Shown piece by piece: positions 2,929 to 20,972 of a DNA stretch of 24,085 nucleotides. Source of the DNA: a phage. A program made the translations under genes and the position numbers. The notes under the pieces are model-generated. The model did not search any database, was not told where the DNA came from, and saw only the letters and a program-made list of their open reading frames with translations. Location of the stretch: NCBI GenBank assembly GCA_031441445.1, contig GCA_031441445.1_4353.1; one strand, 5' to 3'. Each line of letters begins with the position of its first letter. Position 1 is the first letter of the stretch.

Positions 2929-4179
2929 TTAAAGTGCGAAAGTCACCGGGATGTTGATTACTGGTTTAACCACCGGCATCTCATAAACTACAGGATAGCC
3001 GAGAGCATCAGCCATATGGTCAATGACGCCGTCTTTAGCCGGCTCTCCGTTATCGTCGTATGCCTGCTGTTCCAGCGTCTTGGCTATCTCAGGACATAAG
3101 TGGTCATTAACCCACAGCTTACCTTTTTCCAGCGCGGTGTTCACGGCTAAAACGCGGTCTTTAACCGGGGGGTTGGCTGATTTAGCGCGAACATCGAAAC
3201 CCGCCTGCTGGAGTAATGCAATATCAGAGATTGACGCCGAGTTTGTCTTACGGTTCTTGCCGCTAGCGTCGGGGTAAACGACGATGCGGTGGCCTTGTGA
3301 CTTCCACTTCTCGGTAATTACGCGCACGGTGTCCGGCGTATCGAACAGGCCCTTCAGTTCTGCAACCGCGTGCCATCCATCTTTACGCTGCACATACACG
3401 GCGCTGGCGTTCTTCGTAACGTTGAAGTCCTGCCCGATGTACAGCGTGTCGCCCGGTTGAATTGTCTCTTTGCTGCGGTGCTTGCGTCGGTCGTATGCGT
3501 AATACACGCTTCCGGATGTCAGGTTGACAAACTCACCGTTCAGATACGCGTTAATCAGTTGCGCCGGGTAAGTCTCAGTCAGCGAGCTAATGTAATCCGG
3601 CGGCAGGAATCTGGCGTTCTCGTGAGTGGACGCCTGCACCATTGAGTAACTCGGCGTCGGGTTCTCCTTGAACTTGGCGTAAACGAACTTGAACCCTTCC
3701 GGAGTCGTGGTGACGGAGATGTGGTTAATTACCCCCGGGATAACCAGACGCATGCGGGCTACGATTTTGTACCACGCCAGCTCGGCTTTCTCACGGCTCA
3801 ATACGTCCAGCTCATCCACGACCGCAGCCGCGATTTTGAAGCCGACTATCGAGCCGGGGTTATCCATCGAGCGGCAGATAACAGTTCCGAGCACCGTCTT
3901 ACCGCGAGTGACCACGACTTCTTTGTCGCCAGATTTAACCAGCACATCGAGGCCGAGGAGGTTAGCCGCTTCCTCGAATGTCGGGTAGAAGATGTCGCGG
4001 ATAGCCGGGTAGGTGGGGCCGAAGTAGCCCAGGCGGGTACCCGGGTTCCGGAGCATGAACGTAAGCAGGTCGAGACAGCCGACAAATGTCTTGCCGCTAC
4101 CGAAGCCTCCGACATAGGCCTTGTATTTGTTATCGCAATTCAGGAACAGTGCCTGTGGTGCGGATAGCTGAATACTCAT
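2929..4179 (-). CDS. terminase large subunit
   Basis: 416-aa ORF with Walker A (YVGGFGSGKTFVG) and Walker B-like (AAVVDELDVL) motifs; ATG overlaps stop of upstream small ORF (ATGA); GAGGTAGAGGA RBS. Confidence 0.8.
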   Translation of the reverse strand: MSIQLSAPQALFLNCDNKYKAYVGGFGSGKTFVGCLDLLTFMLRNPGTRLGYFGPTYPAIRDIFYPTFEEAANLLGLDVLVKSGDKEVVVTRGKTVLGTVICRSMDNPGSIVGFKIAAAVVDELDVLSREKAELAWYKIVARMRLVIPGVINHISVTTTPEGFKFVYAKFKENPTPSYSMVQASTHENARFLPPDYISSLTETYPAQLINAYLNGEFVNLTSGSVYYAYDRRKHRSKETIQPGDTLYIGQDFNVTKNASAVYVQRKDGWHAVAELKGLFDTPDTVRVITEKWKSQGHRIVVYPDASGKNRKTNSASISDIALLQQAGFDVRAKSANPPVKDRVLAVNTALEKGKLWVNDHLCPEIAKTLEQQAYDDNGEPAKDGVIDHMADALGYPVVYEMPVVKPVINIPVTFAL

Positions 4180-7248: not shown

Positions 7249-7277
7249 AATATAATAGGGTCGTAGGTAATAGTCAA
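7249..7277 (-). promoter_or_regulatory. sigma70-like promoter (TTGACT-N17-TATATT) for the minus-strand early operon
   Basis: -35 is rc of 7272-7277, -10 is rc of 7249-7254, 17-bp spacer; about 30 nt upstream of ATG 7215. No operator palindrome in this copy. Confidence 0.5.
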
Positions 7278-7299
7278 CTAGTCATTGCAGAAAATAGAT

Positions 7300-7331
7300 A
7301 AAAAAAATCCCGGCTGGGTCAGGGCCGGGAT
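7300..7331 (-). terminator. rho-independent terminator (minus strand)
   Basis: 8-bp stem ATCCCGGC / GCCGGGAT (7307-7314 / 7324-7331) followed on the minus strand by eight U (A-run 7300-7307 on plus). Confidence 0.6.
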
Positions 7332-7364
7332 AAAACTGGAGAGCAGAGGTATGGAACAGGAGGT
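7300..7364 (-). ncRNA. candidate small RNA (about 65 nt) between promoter 7371-7399 and terminator 7300-7331
   Basis: Promoter, short ORF-free transcript and strong terminator in series; predicted RNA begins ...ACCUCCUGUUCC... (anti-Shine-Dalgarno-like CCUCC). Confidence 0.3.
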
Positions 7365-7370
7365 GATTTA

Positions 7371-7399
7371 AGTATCGTCGGATTAGTCTTAGGTGTCAA
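7371..7399 (-). promoter_or_regulatory. sigma70-like promoter (TTGACA-N17-GATACT) driving the candidate sRNA
   Basis: Perfect -35 (rc of 7394-7399), 17-bp spacer, -10 GATACT (rc of 7371-7376). Confidence 0.35.
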
Positions 7400-7526
7400 C
7401 AGAGATTCTCCGGCACGCGTTACCGCACTTTGGCTCGACCTTGTTACAGGTCCGCGAGGGTGATGATACCCGGAATTCCCTCAATGTTGTTTAATCTTCT
7501 GTTGCCGTTAGTCTATCAAACTACTG

Positions 7527-9759: not shown

Positions 9760-9791
9760 TTCGTTTTCCTCTGTCTCGTCTGTGTAAATGA

Positions 9792-9820
9792 ATAGTAGCC
9801 TATTCTATCTTAGTGTGCAA
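9792..9820 (-). promoter_or_regulatory. early promoter cassette (TTGCAC-N17-TACTAT, minus strand) with operator palindrome
   Basis: -35 is rc of 9815-9820, -10 is rc of 9792-9797; palindrome AATAG-TAGC-CTATT at 9791-9804 overlaps the -10; whole cassette to the ATG is homologous to the one at 11022-11090. Confidence 0.5.
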
Positions 9821-10327: not shown

Positions 10328-10684
10328 TTAGTCCTCATGATATTTTTCAAACCAGAACACAACCGGGTCAGATTTCATTTCAACCAACCCCATACGAACC
10401 AGCGCTTTGCCTTTCCCGGACGCAAGGAATTCACGACGACCATCACTGATAATTCGCCGATAATCTTCCAGGCTACCGCAATGCTTGTGCAGATTGCATG
10501 GGCGGCATGCCGGAACCATGTTGGATATATCGTCGCGTTCCTGGTGAAGCATATTTCCATCAAAACGAATGACCGGTTTTACATGGTATGCATGCCACTT
10601 TTCACCAAGTTCGCAGCCACAATAAGCACAGCGACCGCCGAACTTCATACGCAATTCTGCTCGTTGTTTTTTAGTTATAGCCAT
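10328..10684 (-). CDS. HNH endonuclease
   Basis: ORF track 10328..10696 starts at GTG; ATG at 10684 preferred. HNH signature CAYCGCEL...WHAYHVKP...NMVPACRPCNLHKH (Cys pairs, His, Asn). Confidence 0.7.
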   Translation of the reverse strand: MAITKKQRAELRMKFGGRCAYCGCELGEKWHAYHVKPVIRFDGNMLHQERDDISNMVPACRPCNLHKHCGSLEDYRRIISDGRREFLASGKGKALVRMGLVEMKSDPVVFWFEKYHED

Positions 10685-10788
10685 ACCAACCCCCACAACG
10701 CGTGCACCGCATAAACGGCGCTGACAATTAAGATAAACGGGTAATTATTCACGGCAACCTCCCTCAGAGTCGTCGGCACTGGCGCCAT
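10675..10788 (-). CDS. tiny hydrophobic peptide (37 aa, MAPVPTTLREVAVNNYPFILIVSAVYAVHALWGLVWL)
   Basis: Unlisted ORF with one predicted TM helix; overlaps the HNH start by 10 nt; no clear SD. Confidence 0.25.
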   Translation of the reverse strand: MAPVPTTLREVAVNNYPFILIVSAVYAVHALWGLVWL

Positions 10789-10805
10789 GATTCGGCGCCG
10801 TGGGT

Positions 10806-11024
10806 TTATTTAAAGTAGATAGCGAATTTCTTGTAACCCGCAGGCTCATTACGAAGCCCCTTACCGATAGCGAAACGTTGTACGTTGTTAAAATCGTTTC
10901 CATCCATACCGTCGGTGCCGAACGTAAAGAAGTTGCGTTTGTTCCCGATAATTACGCGCTCTGAAATATCGATGCCGTAAACTTGTTTGATTGCGGAAAC
11001 TACGCTTGCGGTCGCTTTGTTCAT
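10806..11024 (-). CDS. hypothetical protein (72 aa)
   Basis: ATG at 11024 with AAGGAATTTAGAAATG initiation region (same leader motif as genes at 17616 and 21003); first gene after promoter 11059-11087. Confidence 0.5.
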   Translation of the reverse strand: MNKATASVVSAIKQVYGIDISERVIIGNKRNFFTFGTDGMDGNDFNNVQRFAIGKGLRNEPAGYKKFAIYFK

Positions 11025-11058
11025 TTCTAAATTCCTTATGTCTCGTTTCGATAAGTGA

Positions 11059-11087
11059 ATAGTAACCTATTATGTTGGGGTGTGCAA
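11059..11087 (-). promoter_or_regulatory. early promoter cassette (TTGCAC-N17-TACTAT, minus strand) with operator palindrome
   Basis: -35 is rc of 11082-11087, -10 is rc of 11059-11064; palindrome AATAG-TAAC-CTATT at 11058-11071. Confidence 0.5.
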
Positions 11088-11129
11088 GAGAATAGTTACG
11101 TTGCCGTTGTGATTCTTTCGTTTCTTAAA

Positions 11130-11185
11130 AGAGTACGCAACGCAGTGGGTGGGCGTTAGCCCACCCCAGCGGAGTGAAGTACTCT
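11130..11185. other. nested inverted-repeat element in the divergent intergenic region
   Basis: Inner perfect 8-bp GC-rich stem GGGTGGGC / GCCCACCC (11147-11154 / 11159-11166, GTTA loop) nested in an outer 7-bp stem AGAGTAC / GTACTCT (11130-11136 / 11179-11185). Confidence 0.4.
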
Positions 11186-11421
11186 CTACCTTGCTCACGG
11201 CAACTATAGAAACTTTTAATTATCAGTGACTTGGATATTTAGGCGGGATTAACAATAGACTTTGACCCTTCCGAAAGCGTCAGCGGAACTACACTCAAGT
11301 GCCTAATGGCACGCGTTGCGTTCCCTGCCGCTCCGCGGTCGCTTGCGATATCTCACAAGCTCAGTGAAGCTTAGCATATTTTCAAGTAAAAGTCAATACC
11401 AGTAGCATCTTTTGTATTTTA

Positions 11422-11461
11422 GTAACTTTGCGTGGTGTTTTGGTTGCTTTTACAAAGTTAC
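11422..11461. promoter_or_regulatory. perfect 9-bp inverted repeat upstream of the AlpA-like gene
   Basis: GTAACTTTG (11422-11430) / CAAAGTTAC (11453-11461) separated by 22 bp, 41-80 nt upstream of ATG 11502. Confidence 0.35.
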
Positions 11462-11501
11462 CGCCTTATACTTCGATACATATTACACAGGAGAGCGCGA
11501 G

Positions 11502-11672
11502 ATGACTATCAATGAAGTTGCAGAATTAATCGGCGTCACCCGCCAGACGATCAATAACTGGATTAAGAGTGGAAAGTTTCCTGATTGCAGCGTTAAAGTA
11601 ATGGGGCGCCGTTTACCAGGAACATTTGACCGTAATAAAGTTGAAGCGTGGATTAAGGAGAACGTGAAATGA
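11502..11672 (+). CDS. AlpA/excisionase-like helix-turn-helix DNA-binding protein
   Basis: ORF track 11412..11672; ATG at 11502 with AGGAGA RBS preferred. 56 aa with the HTH signature MTINEVAELIGVTRQTINNWIKSGKFP. Confidence 0.65.
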   Translation: MTINEVAELIGVTRQTINNWIKSGKFPDCSVKVMGRRLPGTFDRNKVEAWIKENVK

Positions 11673-11959
11673 AAGGTGTAATTTTCCACGATAAAGAAAA
11701 TGACAGTGCTTATATGGTCTATTTAGTGCAAGGTGAGTATGCGTTGTGTTTTAACGTTTCCTGTAAACTGGACTCATATTTGCCGTTTTGCGTTACAGAA
11801 GAATTGCAGTTGATTAGTCTAAGAAGACTCAGCACAATGTCGGCTTCCATCGATGTCTCCGACCACCTATCCTACGTTTATCAGTATTTCGGGGATGAGA
11901 TTGTCGCAGATTATTACCGTAAGTACGCGCATTTGATGGAATGTCTGGCTAATAGATAA
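11669..11959 (+). CDS. hypothetical protein (96 aa)
   Basis: ATG overlaps the upstream stop (ATGA); GGAG RBS. Confidence 0.5.
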   Translation: MKGVIFHDKENDSAYMVYLVQGEYALCFNVSCKLDSYLPFCVTEELQLISLRRLSTMSASIDVSDHLSYVYQYFGDEIVADYYRKYAHLMECLANR

Positions 11960-12016
11960 AAGAAGGCCCCAGCGTTAGAGCGCCGAGGCCAAATTACTTG
12001 CTGAAGGAAATACAAC

Positions 12017-14302
12017 ATGTCCGATGTAATTTTATCCTACTCGTGGTCACGCCGCAACGCGCGGGCGGGAAAAAAGGATATAAATGTCAGAACCGCACAC
12101 ACGGCAACACTGGACGACCTGAAAGAGTTAATCCAGCCGCTCGATGCCGTTCGCGACGGGATTAACCCTAAGACCGCGCCCGGTTATATCACCGCCGCGT
12201 GCGACTCAACGCACAGCACCGTAAAAGACCCGGAAACTGGAGACTTTAAGCAAGCGCGTAAAGGTTTTTTCTACCGCTGCGATGCGTCTGTAAGCAAATC
12301 GTCGCTGGCCTATCTGGATTTCGACAGCACAACACCGGAAGAGTATCAGGAAGCGGTGCGCCTGGTTAAGCGCAGCCGCTGGGCCATGTGCCTCTATACC
12401 ACGGCATCACATACTGATGAGTCACCGCGCTTTCGCGTCGTAATGCCACTGGCCCGTCCGGTGGAGGGTGGTGACATCATCCGTGTTCGTCATGGGTTGC
12501 TGGAGCACTTCTTCAAAGGCATGGGTGCGGACCGCAGCGGGTTCACTCTGTCGCAGCCGATGTACCTGCCGCCGGTCGGCGCTACCGTTATCTGGTCGCG
12601 CCGCAACGACCTGATCGACCCGAACGAGTTACTGGAAGGCATCCCAGCCGTTGACGTTAGCAGCGCATCGGATTACCAGATACCGGAAGAACTGCGCACC
12701 GCGTTTACAGACGCGTTTGAAGCACTGGCGTTTGAGTACGGCGGCGTCATGACGCCGCGCGGCCTTAAGATGCCAGCCACACCGGAACATGCCGAAAACT
12801 ACAGCGACCCGACACCGCGCCCGGACGACTTCCTGCTGTGCTTCCCGCGCGAGGGGTATGAAGCGCCAAACGTAACCATGATTCACGACACAGACATTAC
12901 GGCGACAGAAGGCCTGTCACCGAAAGAGGTGTGGAAGTACGCGTGCGATGCGACCGGGCTGCCGTTCAGTGAAGTCGCAGAGGCCATCGGTTGGGGGGCG
13001 CGTGAATCTGTCTCATGCAGCCTCGACGACCTGGAAGACGACGAGGACTCAGAGGAGGACGAGTTACCAGAACCGGTAAAGGCTGATTTCGTCGTTGAGG
13101 GGTACATGCCGTCGGATTGTATCTGGGATATTGTCGGGGAATCCGGCACGTACAAATCATTCTATACGCTGGGGATGATGTACCTGAGCGCCGCCGGGTA
13201 CCGGTTTGCGGGGGCTGACACCCAACGTTGCCACCATTTCTATATTGACGGCGAGGGTGGTGCAGCTACACGAACACGTATTGATGCACTCGCGGCTAAA
13301 TATGGCGAGGAAGGTAAAGATTATGTACATGTCATCGATATGGGCGAAATACTCGCTACGCATGGTGATAAAAAAATTCCAGCTCTAATCCGCAGGATGC
13401 GCGAAACCGCAGGGGATGAACCTATTGGCATGGTTGCCTTCGACACCCTTAACCAGACGCTGGCCCTGACGATTGATAAGTTCGACGAGAACAGTTCATC
13501 AACGGCAATCGGTATGGGTAAAGTTATCGCCATCCTGAAAGAAGTGCGCGATGCAACTAAAGCCGCTGTCGGTGTCGTTCACCATACTCCGAAGGGCGGA
13601 AAGAAAGCCCGCGGCAGTGGAGCATTGTATGCGGGTGTCGACGTGGAACTGACAATCGAACGCGCTACCGACCGTCAGATAAACGTATACCACTCTAAAT
13701 TTAAGCACGGTCCGCAACAGAAGACGGTTGGCATGGTACTGGAGTCTGTACAGTTCCGTGAAGCACCGCCGCCGAAAGAGTACCGCGCGGTTGAGTTCCT
13801 CGGTAGCACAGAGGAATACGGCACAATAGTAAACCTCGACCTGCCTGAGCCGCACAAGGCGCTTGTATTGATGCCGTGGGGCTTCGAGCCGTTCAAAACT
13901 GACGAGGAGAAAGAGAGGGAAGAAGGGTTAACTAACGAAGGTAAACAAAATGTACGTAAAACCATAGAGAACGCCGTCAACAGTTCCGAGGCCACGATAC
14001 TCGCGGCGTTTGAACTGGCGGAGGGGACCTACAACGGCAACGAGGGCATCACGGTATCCGCAGCGAATAAGCTCGCGCAGTCTGACCCCAACGCAAAGGC
14101 GTTTAACTCCAAAGAAGCCATAGAACGCGGGAAGATTAAGAAAATGGTTGAGGCTGGGTATCTTGTTCCGGGTACTGACGAAAACAATCAGATAATCCCA
14201 GGCCGTTACAGACTGAACACCATGATAACAGATAACAAGATTCCGAAGACAATATACGAACCGAATGAAATGCTGACAGTGACCGAGGAGGATTTGGAAT
14301 GA
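12017..14302 (+). CDS. bifunctional DNA primase/helicase (AEP-type primase-polymerase N-terminus fused to RecA-like ATPase)
   Basis: 761 aa. N-terminal AEP motifs LAYLDFD (DxD) and TTASHTD (sxH); acidic linker DDLEDDEDSEEDE; C-terminal Walker A GESGTYKS and H-motif VGVVHHTPKG; GAAGGAAA RBS. Confidence 0.7.
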   Translation: MSDVILSYSWSRRNARAGKKDINVRTAHTATLDDLKELIQPLDAVRDGINPKTAPGYITAACDSTHSTVKDPETGDFKQARKGFFYRCDASVSKSSLAYLDFDSTTPEEYQEAVRLVKRSRWAMCLYTTASHTDESPRFRVVMPLARPVEGGDIIRVRHGLLEHFFKGMGADRSGFTLSQPMYLPPVGATVIWSRRNDLIDPNELLEGIPAVDVSSASDYQIPEELRTAFTDAFEALAFEYGGVMTPRGLKMPATPEHAENYSDPTPRPDDFLLCFPREGYEAPNVTMIHDTDITATEGLSPKEVWKYACDATGLPFSEVAEAIGWGARESVSCSLDDLEDDEDSEEDELPEPVKADFVVEGYMPSDCIWDIVGESGTYKSFYTLGMMYLSAAGYRFAGADTQRCHHFYIDGEGGAATRTRIDALAAKYGEEGKDYVHVIDMGEILATHGDKKIPALIRRMRETAGDEPIGMVAFDTLNQTLALTIDKFDENSSSTAIGMGKVIAILKEVRDATKAAVGVVHHTPKGGKKARGSGALYAGVDVELTIERATDRQINVYHSKFKHGPQQKTVGMVLESVQFREAPPPKEYRAVEFLGSTEEYGTIVNLDLPEPHKALVLMPWGFEPFKTDEEKEREEGLTNEGKQNVRKTIENAVNSSEATILAAFELAEGTYNGNEGITVSAANKLAQSDPNAKAFNSKEAIERGKIKKMVEAGYLVPGTDENNQIIPGRYRLNTMITDNKIPKTIYEPNEMLTVTEEDLE

Positions 14303-14842: not shown

Positions 14843-14872
14843 GTCAGTTACTCCTTAGTCAGTTGATATGTG

Positions 14873-14886
14873 AATAGTACCATATT
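14873..14886. promoter_or_regulatory. operator-like site O1 overlapping the XRE promoter -10 (AATAG-TACC-ATATT) with extended -10 TGGTACTAT
   Basis: Imperfect copy of the recurring palindrome; minus-strand TGnTACTAT (rc of 14874-14882) serves as an extended -10 for the XRE gene; the -35 is poor. Confidence 0.45.
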
Positions 14887-14906
14887 AATTATTTTAGAAA
14901 AGCCCA

Positions 14907-14935
14907 TTGACATGTGAATAGTTCGCTATTATAGT
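14907..14935 (+). promoter_or_regulatory. early promoter cassette (TTGACA-N17-TATAGT) with operator palindrome
   Basis: -35 14907-14912, -10 14930-14935; palindrome AATAG-TTCG-CTATT at 14917-14930 in the spacer; drives the operon starting at 14964. Confidence 0.55.
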
Positions 14936-17531: not shown

Positions 17532-17560
17532 TTGACACCTGAATAGTTAGCTATTATAGT
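17532..17560 (+). promoter_or_regulatory. early promoter cassette (TTGACA-N17-TATAGT) with operator palindrome
   Basis: -35 17532-17537, -10 17555-17560; palindrome AATAG-TTAG-CTATT at 17542-17555; drives the SSB gene. Confidence 0.55.
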
Positions 17561-20698: not shown

Positions 20699-20972
20699 GG
20701 GGCGCATACAGAAATACGCAAAAGAGCGATTCGAGGCCCTCGGTGGCCTCGTTCGCAAGCTCTCCTACGAAGGACGTTCCGGCGCTCCCGACCTGCTGGT
20801 AATTCTCCCCGGCGGTATCATCTGGTTTGTCGAGGTTAAGAAAGACGAAAACACGAAGCCAGACCCGCACCAGTTACGTGAGCATGAGCGGATGCGTAAA
20901 CGCGGTGCAAATGTTTTTGTCGTTGGTTCGTTTAAACAGGTTGACGACCTAATAGCAAACTATTATAGTTAG
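20685..20972 (+). CDS. VRR-NUC domain nuclease
   Basis: 95 aa with PD-(D/E)XK core GAPDLLVILPGGIIWFVEVKK; GTGAGGGG RBS. Confidence 0.7.
   Translation: MSTPEGRIQKYAKERFEALGGLVRKLSYEGRSGAPDLLVILPGGIIWFVEVKKDENTKPDPHQLREHERMRKRGANVFVVGSFKQVDDLIANYYS
20941..20969 (+). promoter_or_regulatory. early promoter cassette (TTGACG-N17-TATAGT) with operator palindrome, inside the 3' end of the VRR-NUC gene
   Basis: -35 20941-20946, -10 20964-20969; palindrome AATAG-CAAA-CTATT at 20951-20964; downstream leader matches the cassette at 14930-14945. Confidence 0.5.

Follow-up and report, generated by a model that had tools for sequence, protein, structure and literature searches.

Here we describe a non-coding cassette that, judged from sequence comparison, appears to be an undescribed, strongly conserved and folded leader RNA. 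It lies in the window, the 24,085-nt stretch of phage DNA analysed here, on the minus strand of a 477-nt gap from which the two gene arms of the phage diverge, and in phages of this group a second copy precedes the capsid genes. The base pairing retained among relatives makes it very probable that the minus-strand leader is a conserved RNA structure.

BLAST of positions 10800-11700 against phage records places the phage in Kagunavirus (Guernseyvirinae), a genus of virulent E. coli siphoviruses with genomes of ~44 kb, the nearest record being vB_EcoS-phiEc4 (99.4% identity over 11039-11700); a reading of the region as part of a resident prophage was rejected, megablast against 5,426 complete E. 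coli genomes returning no match. In phiEc4 the two genome arms diverge from one point only, this gap: the rightward arm carries the HTH gene, primase-helicase, polymerase and helicase, and the leftward arm of ~31 kb runs from small genes through holin and endolysin to terminase, portal, head, tail and tailspike. Thirty ORFs of the window, which spans half of the genome, were scanned against PHROGs and Pfam and are consistent with this two-arm layout; the phage is one without an RNA polymerase of its own.

An earlier note on this DNA, made from its letters alone, had singled out the gap as unusually long, with AT-rich stretches, and as a candidate control hub. The coordinates are correct, the gap being bounded by the start codons (ATG) of the leftward ORF (11024-11022) and of the HTH gene (11502), and at 477 nt it is the biggest intergenic stretch in phiEc4, the next two measuring 376 and 375 nt. 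Its GC content is 43.8% against 50.5% for the window, with 77.5% A+T in the richest 40-mer (11202-11241). In keeping with the proposed hub, three elements in it resemble promoters, and it contains a composite hairpin of terminator-like form, an inverted repeat that looks like an operator, and the conserved structured RNA. These support a transcription control region at the divergence of both gene arms, rather than empty spacer; the whole explanation given below, with its functional step, we regard as an even proposition. The sequence elements, their conservation, their strand and their occurrence in two copies are observed directly, as is the base-pairing pattern, and from these we infer promoter firing and the start and end points of the RNA. 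The anatomy that we propose, in which the promoters are predicted, is as follows, and its order of promoters, leader RNA and hairpin is probably right.

11025-11501, no strand assigned: proposed control region, divergent and non-coding, that separates the leftward arm from the rightward replication arm
11037-11032, minus strand: RBS AAGGAA of the first leftward gene, with ATG at 11024
11057-11087, minus strand: P_st, predicted promoter of the first leftward gene; TTGCAC (11087-11082), 17-nt spacer, TACTAT (11064-11059)
11120-11213, minus strand: composite hairpin, terminator-like 3' domain of the predicted leftward non-coding transcript (-40.4 kcal/mol, z -4.0)
11213-11208 with 11125-11120, minus strand: enclosing helix GUUUCU / AGAAAC
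11130-11127, minus strand: short U run after the outer stem (UCUUUU)
11214-11252, minus strand: A/U-rich linker of ~40 nt, mostly unpaired, from leader RNA to composite hairpin (77.5% A+T at 11202-11241)
11253-11362, minus strand: two-hairpin leader RNA (the "module"), 110 nt; covariance model R1, 102 bits, E 1.5e-22
11360-11353 with 11348-11341, minus strand: leader P1, 5'-terminal hairpin at ~+3 of the predicted transcript
11338-11271, minus strand: long irregular hairpin of the leader, closed by CCG/CGG, with P2, P3 and apical P4
11312-11308 with 11303-11299, minus strand: apical P4 of the leader
Ending at 11253, minus strand: conserved single-stranded leader tail GGAAGGG...CUAUUG
11368-11396, minus strand: P_mod, predicted promoter of the leader RNA; -35 TTGACT (11396-11391), N14, extended -10 TGC-TAAGCT (11376-11368)
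11422-11461, no strand assigned: perfect 9-bp inverted repeat GTAACTTTG / CAAAGTTAC, operator-like, flanking the P_R -35 between the divergent promoters
11444-11501, plus strand: predicted P_R with the 5' UTR of the AlpA/excisionase-like HTH gene (56 aa); TTGCTT (11444-11449), 17-nt spacer, TATACT (11467-11472)
Near 11490-11495, plus strand: RBS of the HTH gene, with ATG at 11502

None of this corresponds to a catalogued RNA: Rfam 15 gave 0 matches at gathering threshold over the whole window and, with the limit relaxed to E 10 for 10950-11560, nothing beyond ctRNA_p42d (16 bits against 50) and PhrS (9.5 against 37), and ARAGORN found no tRNA or tmRNA. The fold recurs among relatives nonetheless. 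When each of 26 distinct sequences is folded alone, 22 share the two-hairpin topology, with the long hairpin 2 bases after P1. The model R1 was made from a MAFFT alignment of 21 sequences with the folded structure written on. In the structure-blind MAFFT alignment 92.1% of cells pair, and sliding the partners lowers this to 32-39%; the covariation score of 0.228 compares with 0.123 for shuffles (0/500) and with at most 0.063 after sliding. For 40 distinct sequences the corresponding values are 95.2% of cells, 0.202 against 0.103 shuffled, and at most 0.044 slid. Individual positions show the same behaviour: pair 32/99 occurs in C-G, U-A and A-U forms and pair 42/88 in U-A, A-U and G-C forms, both with zero mispairs, and P4 takes at least 6 different sequences, every one of them hairpin-forming, around a loop with no sequence conservation. 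The strand follows from the wobble pairs, the conserved G.U pairs 30/101, 31/100 and 52/77 being A.C mismatches on the opposite strand, and RNAalifold gives -20.8 kcal/mol for the minus strand against -11.3 for the other.

The covariation measures least inflated by relatedness, pair and pair-type counts, are not above shuffles on the ~6-9 independent lineages available, whether taken as pairs with two-sided changes (148/500 for the 40 sequences, 351/500 for the MAFFT alignment) or as pair types (468/500 and 500/500, respectively). RNAalifold on the model-fitted 64-row alignment likewise recovered P1 and local pairs only (-9.9 kcal/mol) and not P2-P4, a result to which we give lower weight because of the incomplete rows and gaps of that alignment. 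The strongest additional support for the leader structure comes from two divergent lineages, one in phage Jersey, whose copy scores 39.8 bits and lies within the annotated "gp08", and a third module lineage made up of L233, L237, L238 and L240. P1 is here swapped wholesale by lineage and stays complementary (GCUUGU/ACAAGC, ACGCU/AGCGU in Jersey, CGUUC/GAACG in L233), Jersey P3 reads UCGCG/CGCGA, and both lineages retain the CCG...CGG-AAGGG frame and the promoter layout. P1 of these lineages is not alignable in register by MAFFT, and the helices are described lineage by lineage.

The cassette of the window has a paralogue. BLAST of the gap alone aligns 11253-11396, at ~79% identity, with another non-coding gap of this genome group, which includes the Salmonella Jerseyviruses; this structural site has the Hoc-like head gene on one side and the spanin (Rz)/scaffold/major-capsid genes on the other, and comes directly after the canonical terminator with which the preceding operon ends. 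In phiEc4 there are exactly 2 R1 matches, each with TTGACT-N14-TGn-TAAGCT before it and a GC hairpin after it, and at both sites the minus-strand order is promoter, ~110-nt conserved stretch, A/U-rich linker and GC-rich hairpin, with the linker boxes CUAUUG and GUUUCUAUrGUU conserved as well. Conservation is striking in phages whose genes have drifted apart: between the E. coli phage Bas73 and the Salmonella phage S102 the module is 100% identical, while identity in the neighbouring coding windows (positions 1-2400) ranges over 62-93% and is mostly 72-90%, which argues for purifying selection on the module.

We counted 181 phage records with the structural-site version, and in 43 of them there is a second place as well. 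Pattern scans of IMG/VR, of one genome per species and of metagenomes found essentially only contigs like this group, mostly ~41-45 kb, with the gene content of the group and often with the module twice per contig; the one-genome-per-species scan gave 1 match, on a Kagunavirus-like contig of 6.2 kb labelled "Bacillota MAG". A promoter-only pattern scan of viral contigs returned mostly unrelated promoters, together with 5 new module variants. R1 found no match in the more distant scaffold-protein relatives (L234, L235, L243-L252). Two further matches, L074 and L087, show the same promoter in a distant relative, directed away from the scaffold gene, and were not taken as homologous.

At the present locus the module is less constant, being found in the gap at 13 of 41 primase-helicase loci and missing from the other 28, and is thus dispensable here. 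The relatives fall into three classes, which share sequence with the window over 11039-11501, 11039-11232 or 11039-11117; all classes have a non-coding gap of ~450-480 nt, with a leftward promoter at the HTH end, hairpins and then P_st. The gap architecture is general, and the window's own cassette is a duplicate of the structural-site element.

The hairpin that closes the cassette had in part been noticed before. The nested inverted repeat of the earlier note is present, with an inner 8-bp stem (11147-11154 / 11159-11166) inside an outer 7-bp stem (11130-11136 / 11179-11185); the 8-bp hairpin alone turns up in 5.2% of shuffles and is marginal, whereas for the composite hairpin 0/200 shuffles are as good. 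What is conserved in relatives is its placement, three unrelated GC hairpins being carried at the same position, and the structural-site hairpin contains a compensatory C-G to U-A change; the latter hairpin corresponds to ARNold terminator T03 in phage Golestan (PMC7203180 supplement). In the window the stem is very stable and UCUUUU comes after the outer stem on the minus strand; the hairpin fell outside the criteria of a simple terminator scan, and 13 nt lie between inner GC stem and U run. The Jersey and L233 lineages keep the hairpin with no U tract behind it, so that the label "terminator" does not fit every version of the cassette.

The earlier note had also pointed to a minus-strand TATAGT, present at 11208-11203, as a -10-like element that could make a short structured RNA. 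The regulatory RNA survives in spirit and its start does not, the leader beginning ~160 nt rightward at P_mod (11396-11368). TATAGT forms part of GUUUCUAUAGUU, a conserved box in which GUUUCU is paired to the AGAAAC past the U run, and at the structural site the equivalent AGAAAC-type partner overlaps the spanin Shine-Dalgarno sequence. This pairing accounts for conservation of the box better than a -10 element does, and leaves room for a weak promoter at TATAGT. Because the helix spans the U run, it would form in read-through RNA only, which suggests that the read-through RNA matters; such a helix fits a role in an mRNA leader or its processing as well as it fits antitermination.

A sigma-70 and terminator consensus scan flagged none of P_st, P_mod and P_R, and missed the hairpin at 11130-11185 too; the promoter calls accordingly rest on conservation, spacing and position. 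P_mod, with a predicted start at ~11362, escaped the scan because its -10 matches at 3/6 positions, and yet TTGACTTTT and TGnTAAGCT are near-invariant across all copies, as are the -35 and the spacing, and the divergent Jersey copies retain the layout as TTGACT-N14-TGT-TACGCT. P_st matches its 31-nt pattern exactly, with a chance expectation of 0; a further copy lies in the window at 9820-9790, and phiEc4 has 4 copies in total. Its motif, TAATAGGnTACTATTCA, is the PHIRE promoter of phage Golestan, at the same site as the one listed there as "Before ORF54" (PMC7203180, Table S4). This stereotyped promoter explains only ~30 of the 477 bp of the gap, and the leader RNA and P_mod do not appear in that publication (PMC7203180).

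From this arrangement we infer the functional step as a whole, and our leading hypothesis, held tentatively, is a cis control of elongation or read-through that resembles antitermination. P_mod, acting near-constitutively, would transcribe leader, linker and composite hairpin leftward; the leader would act in cis on RNA polymerase or on its own transcript, and would set the amount of P_mod transcription that passes the hairpins and terminators into the late genes, through a mechanism of processive antitermination or attenuation comparable to HK022 put or lambda PR'-6S-tR'. At the present locus a late read-through transcript would be laid over genes served early by P_st, which would drive the first leftward gene, with P_R driving the HTH gene and the replication operon. 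The structural site bears directly on this proposal, as P_mod is there the sole promoter-like element ahead of the spanin RBS and the hairpin lies in between, so that transcription of the capsid operon must traverse the hairpin. The leftward arm of the window holds more terminator-like hairpins, at 9935-9914, 7559-7535 and 1424-1409.

Among known systems, HK022 offers a close parallel in layout. Its genome carries two similar cis-acting antiterminator RNAs, putL and putR, both transcribed from a host sigma-70 promoter upstream of them, with putL starting almost at +1, and each put RNA of ~70 nt forms two stem-loops with bulges and conserved unpaired bases (PMC9378689). The cassette shares the two paralogous copies, each behind a (here predicted) sigma-70 promoter and upstream of terminators, in a phage without its own RNA polymerase and with long operons that contain terminators; it also shares a two-stem-loop RNA with bulges, for which 92-95% of cells pair here and the phylogeny-robust measures are non-significant. 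It differs in that the leader is 110 nt long as opposed to ~70 nt, P1 is a short regular hairpin, and both copies point in the same direction in a virulent siphovirus. The likeness is one of layout: no similarity to the put region was seen in sequence or covariance model, R1, run with filters off on 12.4 kb of HK022 (record 24000-34000, assumed to cover the immunity region, in which put was not located), giving at most 8 bits and E of at least 1. The put RNAs suppress terminators in cis without added factors, and mutations in the beta' zinc-binding domain block this.

The late region of lambda offers a second parallel. As in PR'-6S-tR', a near-constitutive sigma-70 promoter would stand just before lysis and structural genes, and a short non-coding transcript would run to a hairpin, with late genes reached by read-through only; this lambda-type layout is present at the structural site, with a U tract that is weak in the window's copy and missing in the Jersey and L233 lineages. 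Two differences set the systems apart: no Q homologue or Q-binding element was identified here (30 window ORFs), and the leader RNA is itself under structural selection, which to our knowledge is not a feature of lambda 6S RNA. Scans of the 30 window ORFs, covering half of the genome, with PHROGs and Pfam yielded no Q-, N- or RfaH-like protein. Nor does the gap resemble lambda N/nut, the P4 loop being unconserved and boxA (GCTCTTTAACAA, up to 3 mismatches) having no match in 11025-11501 and a window total below chance. It is possible, if rather doubtful, that the leader represents a new class of cis processive antitermination RNA, either put-like or a docking site for an unrecognised phage factor; were this so, virulent Guernseyvirinae would make host RNA polymerase terminator-resistant at the heads of their late operons. 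As far as we know, the list of RNA antiterminator classes is very short (put, EAR and the Tn916 element), and a true RNA antiterminator in the leader would be a new class on that list and the first in a virulent siphovirus.

Control of elongation need not be the purpose of such a leader, and an unlikely alternative is that it governs the fate of the mRNA, with P1 shielding the late mRNA from 5'-end-dependent decay and the irregular hairpins serving as sites of RNase III-type processing or translation control. The ompA 5' UTR, the lambda N leader and the T7 R sites are 5'-terminal stabiliser hairpins or RNase III-processed leaders of this kind, and the cassette resembles them in placing a hairpin a few nucleotides from the 5' end (P1 is 2-3 nt from the predicted one) and in having long irregular UTR hairpins before highly expressed genes, one of which overlaps an RBS. 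The read-through-only helix, which at the structural site pairs part of the spanin Shine-Dalgarno sequence, and the retention of the hairpin before the spanin RBS even in lineages without the U tract fit the same picture. However, known leaders of this type tolerate change, and a simple stabiliser could do without 100% identity from one genus to the next and without fixed internal loops and tail, all of which are kept in the module; moreover, P_st separates the cassette from the first leftward gene, whose mRNA the leader would join by read-through only.

It is less probable again, and quite unlikely in our view, that the cassette is a free-standing sRNA gene of ~240 nt with a promoter and terminator of its own, present as two paralogues, whose product would bind a protein or regulate targets in trans, in the host or the phage. 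Its order of promoter, structured body, A/U-rich stretch and hairpin with U run is typical of enterobacterial sRNAs, the transcript at the present locus would stop just ahead of the independent promoter P_st, and the conserved unpaired segments (GGAAGGG...CUAUUG and GAGUGUAG) could be contact sites. Against this, the structural-site hairpin abuts the spanin RBS with no promoter behind it, so that read-through is needed for the capsid operon, two lineages have no U tract, and no target was identified.

The earlier note had further suggested a replication origin, which we now consider very unlikely, whether of iteron type and bound by the adjoining primase-helicase or transcription-primed, in which case P_mod would provide the R-loop primer across the A/U-rich linker. 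The gap does adjoin the replication operon at the strand-switch point, it has the 77.5% A+T stretch downstream of a promoter, and the published accounts examined for these phages mention no origin. In these respects (a promoter, a structured RNA, an A+T-rich stretch and adjoining replication genes) it is like T4 oriF/oriG and ColE1 RNA II, which are transcription-primed origins. In contrast to them, it shows no sign of an R-loop or unwinding element, is dispensable in most relatives, and has a second copy in the structural region, ahead of the capsid genes. The gap contains no iterons, its direct repeats being two-copy and 9-16 nt only, the best pair promoter-associated, with no repeat family other than promoter-associated 14-mers, and no DnaA or IHF consensus; the GC-skew minimum falls where the coding strand changes; 28/41 relatives lack the central module in this gap, the gap being a three-class mosaic; and the pattern of conservation is that of RNA pairing with G.U pairs.

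Finally, unannotated small protein genes in the gap and at the paralogous site are scarcely credible and this reading was rejected: the module carries hypothetical CDS annotations in SHAK7858, Bas73_0007 and Jersey gp08, and several frames hold stop-free stretches, but frames are not conserved among relatives, the ORF from the promoter spacer measuring 24 aa in the window, 42 aa in one relative and only 5 aa in most others, the conserved core containing 1- and 4-nt indels, substitutions preserving pairs, and the 42-aa GTG ORF at 11198 (11070-11198, minus strand) having no preceding Shine-Dalgarno sequence. The earlier description of the gap as free of ORFs is literally too strong, since a mechanical count gives 14 ORFs that reach 20 aa or more and overlap 11000-11520, and holds in the sense that no frame is kept across relatives. 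Several GenBank records thus misannotate the module as a hypothetical protein, and it merits an RNA family model.

The cis-acting, antitermination-like reading also bears on an aspect of these phages for which we found no published account, the timing of late genes in Kagunavirus and Jerseyvirus. These genera, which lack an RNA polymerase of their own, are among the commonest isolates for E. coli and Salmonella therapy and biocontrol. As the most conserved stretch of its locus, placed before the capsid operon and duplicated at the divergence point, the cassette is a testable candidate for the late switch.

On the other side of the gap, both hexamers of P_R are kept in all window-like gaps regardless of the HTH variant, and RNA-seq of the Kagunavirus K1B4 shows the HTH gene to be an early gene (PMC12645636). 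The 9-bp inverted repeat that had been noted beside this gene is indeed perfect (arms 11422-11430 / 11453-11461) and looks like an operator common to P_R and P_mod, although a 9-bp repeat within 40 nt is seen in 5.9% of dinucleotide shuffles and is marginal alone. Its left arm occurs in nearly all window-like gaps and its right arm only alongside the MTINEV-type HTH gene. In Jersey the same half-site forms a tight palindrome, GTAACTTcAAGTTAC, at the equivalent place just after that phage's own arm promoter, which favours the operator reading of the repeat.

Similarity to the window in most close relatives starts at 11039 and extends rightward only, so the left flank of the 477-bp gap is, judged by sequence comparison, a swap point. 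This flank holds a 72-aa first leftward gene (window 10806-11024, minus strand) with a match to an 'internal head protein' PHROG, and a 122-aa ORF (window 10328-10696, minus strand) that matches an HNH endonuclease family in its C-terminal part only (160-272 of 301). The stereotyped promoter predicted at the left end of the gap uses a motif already present in the PHIRE listing for the Kagunavirus phage Golestan (PMC7203180), and motif searching of the window returned further matches:

9790-9820, minus strand: further stereotyped promoter copy, TTGCAC-17-TACTATTC
14865-14887, 14914-14932, 17540-17557 and 20951-20966: partial matches to the stereotyped promoter

phiEc4, the closest complete genome, has four full copies, which are predicted to serve the small leftward genes as well as opposite-strand inserts, the latter including a superinfection-immunity gene and phosphatase genes. 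The genes served by these four copies suggest that the stereotyped promoter represents an early/moron promoter class.

Structured elements were also found at other positions, among them a strong terminator-like hairpin facing leftward within the rightward operon, directly upstream of the primase-helicase gene:

11965-11990, minus strand: hairpin of 10 pairs, 8 of them G-C, followed by UUCUUUUAUC

This predicted terminator, whose Golestan counterpart is ARNold T12, may block antisense transcription into the control region, or may work bidirectionally. In L010 and its relatives, which carry hairpin variant B in the early gap, a (CACU)n run lies directly upstream of the GGUGCC-UUCG-GGCACC hairpin; its length varies among phages (about three repeats versus about six). 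The run is rich in C and lacks structure, which makes it a possible site for Rho loading. A different short leader occupies phiEc4 14095-14272, a third restart of the late arm after opposite-strand genes and upstream of the tail genes (14273 onward), where an extended -10 (TGcTAGAAT) is followed by a hairpin (GCGCC...GGCGC) and U-rich sequence; a search of phiEc4 with R1, the covariance model of the leader RNA module, indicates that this leader is unrelated to R1.

One candidate for a repeated operator half-site within the gap is TAGTAACTTTG, which may have a relationship to the 9-bp inverted repeat. With up to 2 mismatches allowed it has 13 matches window-wide, 4 of them in the gap, an enrichment that is post hoc as the motif was derived from the gap itself:

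11093-11103, 11207-11217, 11420-11430 and 11453-11463: matches to TAGTAACTTTG, at most 2 mismatches

Several database records appear misassigned or misannotated. A 6.2-kb contig from a 'Bacillota bacterium' MAG bin (JAEWLW010000073.1) carries a Kagunavirus-like copy of the gap, which scores 93 bits with R1 and is 76% identical over 430 nt; the contig is almost certainly a piece of phage DNA placed in the wrong bin. The taxonomy line of vB_EcoM_SHAK7858 (OR594183.1) reads Autographiviridae/Kayfunavirus, yet its sequence runs collinear with the Kagunavirus region studied here and is 85.6% identical to it, which suggests a mislabelled record. Finally, in three phages the module made up of promoter and leader RNA is overlain by GenBank CDSs for hypothetical proteins, and these CDSs are probably annotation artefacts:

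Jersey 7265-7456: gp08
Bas73 2485-2595: Bas73_0007
SHAK7858 3418-3654: SHAK7858_0054 and SHAK7858_0055
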